Shown in pieces: positions 1 through 486 of a stretch of DNA of 486 nucleotides (positions are counted from its first letter, which is position 1; every line of letters starts with the position of its first letter). The stretch lies in NCBI RefSeq assembly GCF_003334765.1, contig NZ_QOWT01000121.1. One strand, given 5' to 3'. The notes beneath the pieces were generated by a model. That model was not told the origin of the DNA, did not search any database, and saw only the letters and a list, made by a program, of their open reading frames with translations. This DNA comes from Escherichia coli. GTDB taxonomy: Bacteria > Pseudomonadota > Gammaproteobacteria > Enterobacterales > Enterobacteriaceae. A program made the position numbers and the translations under genes.

Positions 1-486
1 GAAGCTGCGCAGCGTTTCCCGGTGCAGGCGGTCGCGGGTGTACTCCACCAGCGGTGTGTCGCCGAGTTTCATGCCTGCCAGGTAACCGCTGCCGTAGGTC
101 AGCCATTCCACGGCGGGCAGGCTGTCCGGTATACAGCGGTTCGCCAGCCCCTGCGCGTTGTACGCATGTCTGGTCTCATGCTGCCAGAGCAGTGCTTCCG
201 TCTGCGGGTGATGCACCGTCTGACGCTCACCGGTCAGCCGGCCTTTCTCATCATACCTGTAATGCACCGCCACCCGGTGCCCTTCGCTGATATGGCTGAT
301 GTCTGTCAGCCAGCCACGTTCGTCATACTGCCACCGCTCTGCGGTTTCACCCTTCACGGTGCGGTGCGTGAGGCGGTCTGCTTCGTCATAGTGCCAGTGG
401 GTGACCAGACCCTCATCCTCGCTGCGGATAAGTTTGCCGGTCAGGTCGTGGTGATAACGCTGTGTGCGGCCGTCAAAGCCGGTTTC
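1..486 (-). CDS. Rhs-family YD-repeat protein, internal core fragment (partial at both ends; polymorphic toxin scaffold)
   Basis: Seen in sequence: reverse-complement frame with codons at +484-486 down to +1-3 has no stop in 162 codons, while the other two minus frames hit stops within the first 4 and 15 codons (tga). Translation: ETGFDGRTQRYHHDLTGKLIRSEDEGLVTHWHYDEADRLTHRTVKGETAERWQYDERGWLTDISHISEGHRVAVHYRYDEKGRLTGERQTVHHPQTEALLWQHETRHAYNAQGLANRCIPDSLPAVEWLTYGSGYLAGMKLGDTPLVEYTRDRLHRETLRSF. It contains repeated Y-D-x-x-G-R/W-L motifs (WQYDERGWL, YRYDEKGRL, HWHYDEADRL, RYHHDLTGKL) at the spacing expected of Rhs/YD repeats, and codon choice is enterobacterial (ctg, ggc, cgc, acc). Established knowledge: the peptide closely resembles the conserved core of E. 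coli-type Rhs proteins as I recall them. I cannot tell which paralog or species from memory, so no gene symbol is given. Confidence 0.9.
187..270 (-). repeat. YD-repeat unit (peptide-level), near-canonical YRYDEKGRLTGE
   Basis: Residues 73-100, AVHYRYDEKGRLTGERQTVHHPQTEALL. This is the best match in the window to the R-Y-x-Y-D-x-x-G-R-L consensus. The YD dipeptide is encoded at +250-255 (atcata on +), 72 nt from the neighbouring YD. Boundaries are approximate. Confidence 0.7.
271..336 (-). repeat. YD-repeat unit (peptide-level), WQYDERGWL
   Basis: Residues 51-72, RWQYDERGWLTDISHISEGHRV. The YD dipeptide is encoded at +322-327 (gtcata on +), 63 nt from the YD of the neighbouring unit. Boundaries are approximate. 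Confidence 0.65.
337..408 (-). repeat. YD-repeat unit (peptide-level), HWHYDEADRL
   Basis: Residues 27-50, LVTHWHYDEADRLTHRTVKGETAE. The YD dipeptide is encoded at +385-390 (gtcata on + = tatgac on -). Boundaries are approximate. Confidence 0.6.
409..477 (-). repeat. YD-repeat unit (peptide-level), variant RYHHD...LTGKL
   Basis: Residues 4-26 of the minus-strand translation, FDGRTQRYHHDLTGKLIRSEDEG. Fits the Rhs repeat consensus G-x(3)-R-Y-x-Y-D-x(2)-G-R-L with the second Tyr replaced by His. Boundaries are approximate. Confidence 0.6.

Follow-up and report, generated by a model that had tools for sequence, protein, structure and literature searches.

The window and its coding content

The window analysed in this work is a stretch of 486 nt of Escherichia coli DNA. 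Translation of its minus strand gives one frame, frame 1, that is open over all 162 codons, and many stops in the two remaining minus-strand frames. The features of the window are the following:

1..486, minus strand: internal Rhs core ORF fragment, open at both window ends (translation, RHS_core match, 100% identity to K-12 rhsA and rhsB, alignment to Rhs structures)
1..42, minus strand: flagged interval, codons for residues 815-828 (YTRDRLHRETLRSF); ordinary core that contains neither a demarcation motif nor the end of the gene
223..327, minus strand: YD (RHS) repeat, residues 54-88 of the window protein (Pfam RHS_repeat, i-E = 4.4e-04)
349..447, minus strand: YD (RHS) repeat, residues 14-46 of the window protein (Pfam RHS_repeat PF05593, i-E = 5.3e-05; TIGR01643 YD_repeat_2x, 19.9 bits for a cut-off of 15.8 bits)

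The window protein matches the NCBIfam model RHS_core (NF041261) with E = 2.1e-101 over model positions 675-836 of 1261, a match that we judge to be far beyond chance. Its score of 340.6 bits is below the whole-protein cut-off of 2000 bits only because 162 of the 1261 model positions are present in the window. In E. coli K-12, rhsA and rhsB both match the window with 100% identity at the DNA level, and the protein that the window encodes corresponds to residues 667-828 in RhsA (WP_000015300.1) as well as in RhsB (WP_000015298.1). There is no difference from either K-12 protein inside the window, which shares with them the same GC-rich core with YD repeats. RhsA and RhsB are the founding E. coli Rhs elements, described since 1984 and now textbook material. 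The GC content of the window is 0.62, and reaches 0.75 at third codon positions. A 15-nt direct repeat at 319-333 and 382-396 encodes WQYDE and WHYDE; its copies are 63 nt (21 codons) apart, a spacing which is, judging from the encoded residues, the YD periodicity. The window is also homologous to the shells of solved Rhs structures, namely Tse5 (8cp6_B residues 577-731, E = 9.6e-21), Tse15 and Pseudomonas protegens RhsA (7q97). The best solved homologue is Tse5, a type VI secretion system (T6SS) Rhs effector of P. aeruginosa (PDB 8cp6).

YD repeats, an RHS_core match and a high GC content, the features of Rhs core membership, were thus all found in the window. We are highly confident that the window is a 162-codon piece inside the GC-rich conserved core of an Rhs polymorphic-toxin gene of the E. 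coli RhsA/RhsB/RhsC subfamily, the product of which would act by the mechanism proposed below. The preliminary description of this DNA had read the gene as running from high to low plus-strand coordinates, with its C-terminal end to the left of position 1, and this is the orientation of the minus-strand frame and of the matching full-length genes. It had also described the window as conserved core devoid of a demarcation motif; in agreement with this, a regular-expression search of the full-length proteins places the sole P....DP.GL at residues 1238-1247, the window being residues 667-828.

Spread of the window and identity of rhsA and rhsB

The window was found in 3,882 of 5,426 complete E. 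coli genomes, at a median of three places per genome, and the best place is at least 99% identical in 790 records. Nine of the 12,735 matching places were inspected in detail. In K-12 there are zero differences between rhsA and rhsB over 1,214 nt (locus 8378-9591, window coordinates -622 to 591), a stretch that includes the window (locus 9001-9486), and only 22 differences in the rest of the core. On the left, the two genes first differ 624 nt from the window; on the right, 106 nt from it. Because no rhsA/rhsB difference lies in or near it, the window can be assigned to neither paralogue: an assignment to one or the other was tried and failed, there being no paralogue-specific base within the window. 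As rhsA and rhsB share this stretch without a difference, the same 486 bases are found upstream of different tips. The identity over 1,214 nt would fit ongoing gene conversion or a recent duplication. The rhsA and rhsB genes are the repeat pair whose recA-dependent unequal crossover gave the Rhs elements their name (PMC2935791).

It also follows from the 1,214-nt identity that tips cannot be assigned from core reads. The history of the EDL933 rhsA gene is a practical example of the difficulty of linking a tip to a repeated core: in the first EDL933 genome (2001) the rhsA 3' end was of the K-12 type, PF15606 (Ntox34), which PCR could not confirm, and in a later assembly the core is instead joined to the z5017 tip (PMC7216683). 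Core-tip ambiguity seems to have been behind the unconfirmed 3' end. The lesson for method is that a window in a multi-copy, near-invariant core names neither the paralogue nor the tip, and that claims about flanks therefore need real flanking sequence.

The core boundary and the tip to the left of the window

In every full-length gene with an identical window, PxxxxDPxGL lies at residues 1238-1247, its last codon being at window coordinate -1256. It takes the forms PVTNTDPLGL, PISDIDPLGL and PVINVDPQGL, and forms the latter half of a DPxG-x18-DPxG aspartyl-protease motif (residues 1221-1246). At this motif the identity between rhsA and rhsB drops from ~98% to ~30%, and the GC content is 0.60-0.65 in the core vs 0.33-0.39 in the tip and immunity region, a contrast between GC-rich core and AT-rich tip that has been described for Rhs genes (PMC2935791). 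The stop codons are 1,649 nt (rhsA), 1,751 nt (rhsB) and 1,745 nt (BA92 type) to the left of position 1. The matching full-length genes encode a 47-residue N-terminal segment, a DUF6531 plug, ~1,100 residues of YD repeats, a PF03527 region with DPxG-x18-DPxGL, and a tip; the Ntox34 and DUF4329 tips described below each come after PF03527 RHS.

In the nine genomic contexts the leftward order is the remainder of the core, DPxG-x18-DPxGL, an AT-rich variable tip of 130-164 aa and a small ORF, and orphan tip/immunity modules and IS elements come next in seven of the nine loci. The order that had been expected from the window, in which core is followed by demarcation motif, variable tip and small immunity gene, was thus right in the nine contexts, except for the immunity gene in ECCHD184, and so was the expectation that orphan modules often lie beyond the immunity gene (seven of nine loci). 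The motif and the tip had been sought several kb to the left; they are indeed on that side, but the tip starts only ~1.26 kb away, and the distance is 1.3-1.8 kb. For the window's own source, we infer the motif, the tip and the immunity gene from the genomes that carry the identical 486-nt segment.

Different tips behind the same 486 nucleotides

Four distinct left flanks were found behind 100%-identical windows:

K-12 rhsA: Ntox34 tip of 130 aa (3e-43), YibA (HEAT repeats), then two orphan tip fragments with yibG and a frameshifted Imm57 gene; Ntox34 and yibA block at coverage of at least 80% in 1,757 of 5,426 genomes
rhsB: DUF4329/Tox-JAB-2 tip of 164 aa (2e-39), YhhH (Imm-NTF2-2, 3.4e-26), HEAT-repeat pseudogene, ISEc1; DUF4329 and yhhH block at coverage of at least 80% in 2,684 of 5,426 genomes
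BA92 and FORC 064: first K-12 orphan tip (clan-CD His/Cys, 162 aa) fused to a full core, yibG (Sel1) next; this tip on a long core stretch in 928 of 5,426 genomes
ECCHD184: Ntox34 tip cut by an IS5-family element, no immunity gene

The first two flanks bear on the most likely partners of the window, which are Ntox34 with YibA if it comes from rhsA, or DUF4329/Tox-JAB-2 with YhhH if it comes from rhsB. An origin in a K-12-type rhsA locus, with Ntox34, yibA and the two orphan tip fragments (yibG and the frameshifted Imm57 gene), is a real possibility, though one somewhat short of even. The window is 100% identical to the K-12 gene that has this layout, the Ntox34 and yibA block occurs in the 1,757 genomes counted above, and about four of the six rows with 100% identity in an evenly spaced sample are K-12-like laboratory strains. 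However, rhsB is equally identical over the window and over the adjoining sequence up to the first distinguishing base on either side, so nothing in the window favours rhsA. An origin in rhsB, with the DUF4329/Tox-JAB-2 tip, yhhH, the HEAT-repeat pseudogene and ISEc1, can be entertained quite seriously while falling a little below an even chance: the identity of the window to rhsB is 100%, the DUF4329 match (2e-39) and the match of YhhH to Imm-NTF2-2 are clear from the list above, and the tip and yhhH block is found in 2,684 genomes, but rhsA is just as identical over the window.

Both K-12 tips are of kinds with tabulated partners. Zhang et al. 2012 (PMC3482391) list Ntox34 with Imm-HEAT on RHS proteins, and Tox-JAB-2 (Pfam DUF4329) with Imm-NTF2-2 in gamma-proteobacteria, E. 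coli only; the K-12 tips have these same immunity partners, YibA (HEAT) and YhhH (Imm-NTF2-2). A statement in Poole et al. 2011 (PMC3150448), which cites Vlazny and Hill 1995, is that the RhsA C-terminus is toxic and is neutralised by yibA. Signature residues were seen in both tips, GNVAD and WNCRH in RhsA-CT and HTH in RhsB-CT. NCBIfam holds no models for any of the three tips (Ntox34, DUF4329 and clan-CD). A PADLOC search of the downstream ORFs yielded only weak matches, for YibA (HEAT-ARM, 2.5e-06; OloA, 0.0033), which are due to its HEAT repeats, and for YibG (PtuA, 0.0063); the clan-CD tip and YhhH had no PADLOC match. The hope that an undescribed tip might lie in this flank is not borne out for the K-12-type flanks, the tips of which are already characterised (Ntox34/Imm-HEAT and Tox-JAB-2/Imm-NTF2-2; RhsA-CT/YibA).

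The third flank is a less likely source of the window's own tip, the clan-CD His/Cys domain with YibG. An origin of the window in a gene at the rhsA position, with the K-12 orphan clan-CD tip promoted onto a full core and followed by YibG, is improbable. The windows of BA92 and FORC 064 are 100% identical and have this flank, and 928 genomes have the tip on a long core stretch, but the flank looks like a minority among records with a 100%-identical window, and both the protease activity and the immunity function of YibG are in-silico statements only (PMC7216683). The arrangement of clan-CD tip and yibG is also present in O157:H7 (96.7% window identity), ETEC H10407 and ML35. In FORC 064, frameshifts are annotated in the rhs gene, in yibF and in the selA region (locus 5255-11782), all within ~6 kb. 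Their clustering suggests errors of sequencing or assembly, not true pseudogenes. BA92 has an intact equivalent.

The fourth flank introduces the case of a degraded gene, with an IS-cut tip, a core fragment or a frameshifted pseudogene, and no working toxin/immunity pair left. In ECCHD184, which has a 100%-identical window, the end of the Ntox34 tip (~26 residues) has given way to ISKpn26 (IS5 family; locus 4299-5318), and the locus lacks yibA, yibH, most of yibI and the two orphan modules. A further tip, together with ybfB, is found in the rhsC copies, whose windows are 98-99% identical; the SZQ1 rhsC copy (4291-7362, 99.0% window identity) lacks its N-terminus as annotated and keeps the tip, ybfB, an orphan with ybfC, and ISAs1 remnants. 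Insertions of IS1, IS5 and IS903 within the tip/immunity block were seen in several genomes. These cases are examples of what a degraded source would look like, but most sampled copies are intact and the window has no stop or frameshift, which makes such a source very unlikely for the window. The truncation that the preliminary description had asked about is therefore real in ECCHD184, where an IS cuts the tip and no immunity gene remains, but is not the state of most sampled copies.

A HEAT-repeat (yibA-like) pseudogene lies at rhsB locus 6439-6789, downstream of yhhH and adjoining ISEc1 (yhhI). This pseudogene would seem to be the remnant of an Ntox34/YibA-type module, and the median of two places per genome obtained with the query made of yibA and the tip fits such a relic at rhsB.

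All three tips are of known kinds and already catalogued. It had been argued that the window alone supports no assertion of novelty, and this holds, as the same 486 bases precede four flank types whose tips are catalogued: the Rhs element of the window and its tips are already known, and no novelty can be attached to the window. We consider it very unlikely that the genome of the window has an unsampled flank type, in which the invariant core segment is followed by a tip and an immunity gene that are both undescribed; the idea is raised because the RhsA/B/C core is a promiscuous carrier, and because the loci inspected are nine of 12,735 places. What this comparison chiefly provides is a precise measure of how far away the motif and the discriminating bases are, together with the finding of at least four flanks behind the same 486 bases.

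A predicted clan-CD peptidase fold in the third tip

The clan-CD tip, which lies outside the window, is an orphan in K-12 (rhsA locus 5502-6458) and the main tip in BA92, O157:H7 and ETEC H10407; in BA92 it occupies locus 4255-4743, and yibG 3782-4243. It has no Pfam-A match in the library used, even at E <= 10, and a direct sequence search of the PDB gave no match; only profile and fold searches were informative. One RefSeq record names it a DUF8616 domain-containing protein. An exhaustive protein search retrieved 562 relatives at E <= 0.001. Some of them form the C-terminal end of long proteins, and in giant proteins (3,000-6,800 aa) as many as five stretches per protein match. DPxG[LIVMF] precedes 70 of the 163 relative segments that were extracted. 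In an alignment of 33 sequences H30, G31 and C70 are invariant. Some relatives match DUF4347 and, more weakly, Peptidase_C13 and Peptidase_C25, and the profile of the tip matches gingipain Kgp with E = 0.047 and legumain with E = 1.2. The invariant His-Gly and Cys, the DUF4347, C13 and C25 matches and the Kgp and legumain profile hits argue together for a domain of clan-CD (CPD/DUF4347-like) His/Cys peptidase fold, a fold that is predicted with confidence; the conserved His-Gly and Cys dyad falls on this predicted caspase-hemoglobinase fold.

Such a domain fits the Tox-Caspase class of Zhang et al. (PMC3482391), the tabulated partners of which are Imm57 or Imm36, whereas the E. coli clan-CD tip has the Sel1 protein YibG. 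It also resembles Tce1 and Tce2 of P. aeruginosa (DUF4347; PDB 9qpe; PMC13323088), and its sequence identity to Tce1/Tce2 and to the CPD (Peptidase C80) of MARTX and TcdA/TcdB is ~14-15%. Tce1 and Tce2 differ from it in that they are loaded into Hcp rings and lack neighbouring immunity genes; the E. coli domain forms the tip of an Rhs protein, with a Sel1 ORF adjacent. In the literature searched, we found in-silico statements on the clan-CD tip/YibG pair (PMC7216683) and no experiments. The pair is the sole lead of some value to come out of this work, given its presence on a long core in 928 genomes and, as an orphan-length form, in many more. The count of 928 was obtained with a 1,400-nt query, of which the orphan form reaches only 69% coverage. 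A count of 2,532 genomes with the clan-CD tip on the core, obtained with a 1,746-nt query, was rejected as inflated, because the longer query let BLAST pieces of the main core and of the orphan join.

Right flank and N-terminus

The preliminary description had advised looking to the right for vgrG, hcp or PAAR genes. Over 6-9 kb on either side, the annotation of the nine sampled loci, which are at rhsA, rhsB and rhsC positions, shows no vgrG, hcp, PAAR or Eag-chaperone gene. The upstream neighbours are yibF/selAB (rhsA), nikR (rhsB) and ybfA/kdp (rhsC). To our knowledge, K-12 has no T6SS. The EHEC rhsA/B/C clade has been placed outside vgrG islands (PMC7216683).

The full-length proteins start with MSGKPAARQGDM, and residues 1-47 of RhsA are encoded at K-12 rhsA locus 11344-11484. 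Pfam PAAR_motif matches residues 2-20 with its positions 51-69 of 70, but at E = 0.15, short of significance, and we do not claim an N-terminal PAAR domain on this basis; there is also a weak match of the N-terminus to the PAAR-like SalCis10 (E = 0.061). The literal letters PAAR occur at RhsA residues 5-8. A DUF6531 plug (3.7e-18) follows the N-terminal segment, and in an alignment with Tse5 the residue with which the self-cleaved shell begins falls on RhsA residue 48 (PVNPLLGAK). In Tse5 the 47-residue N-fragment is a PAAR-like domain that is required for secretion (PMC10684867). Tse5 and the full-length E. coli proteins are alike in having a ~47-residue N-fragment, a DUF6531 plug at PVNP(L/M)LG, a YD shell and an aspartyl-protease plug, and by analogy a Tse5-like layout, in which a PAAR-like fragment of 47 residues precedes a conserved cleavage site near the N-terminus, is plausible for RhsA and RhsB. 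They differ in that Tse5 is vgrG-adjacent and has a pore-forming tip, whereas the sampled E. coli RhsA/B/C loci have no T6SS neighbours and carry unrelated tips.

Proposed mechanism

By homology with Tse5 and P. protegens RhsA (PMC10684867), the YD repeats would form a closed cocoon round the tip, and the residues encoded in the window would lie in the beta-cocoon wall. On the model of the solved homologues, the two aspartates of DPxG-x18-DPxG would release the tip by a cut after DPxGL; both aspartates of this catalytic motif are conserved in the E. coli full-length proteins. Autoproteolysis and encapsulation in E. coli RhsA and RhsB would thus be as in Tse5, P. protegens RhsA and Rhs1 (PMC10684867), from which they are carried over. 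The protein encoded downstream would neutralise the tip inside the producing cell. Finally, as copies of the core recur in the chromosome almost unchanged, recombination within it, or with the downstream orphan fragments, would swap tips; this C-terminal displacement is suggested by the comparative layout (PMC2935791).

Minor features of the window

The longest ORF within the window on the plus strand has 78 aa (54-290). It has no protein family match, and was rejected as a gene; we regard it as an artefact, antisense to coding DNA that is rich in GC. An Rfam scan of the window gave a sole match, to sR32, the score of which (16.3 bits vs a gathering score of 40) is below threshold and ascribed to chance. 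Scans of the window for promoter-like and terminator-like sites, tRNA and inverted repeats found none.

Chi octamers are common in E. coli, and at least one was obtained in 8 of 200 shuffles of the window. The window has a Chi octamer (GCTGGTGG) on the rhs coding strand, at 45-52 (minus), just to the right of the flagged interval; its presence in the stretch where rhsA and rhsB recombine may mean nothing. Another Chi octamer, in the same orientation, lies farther upstream in the core, at 10845-10852 of the K-12 rhsA locus.
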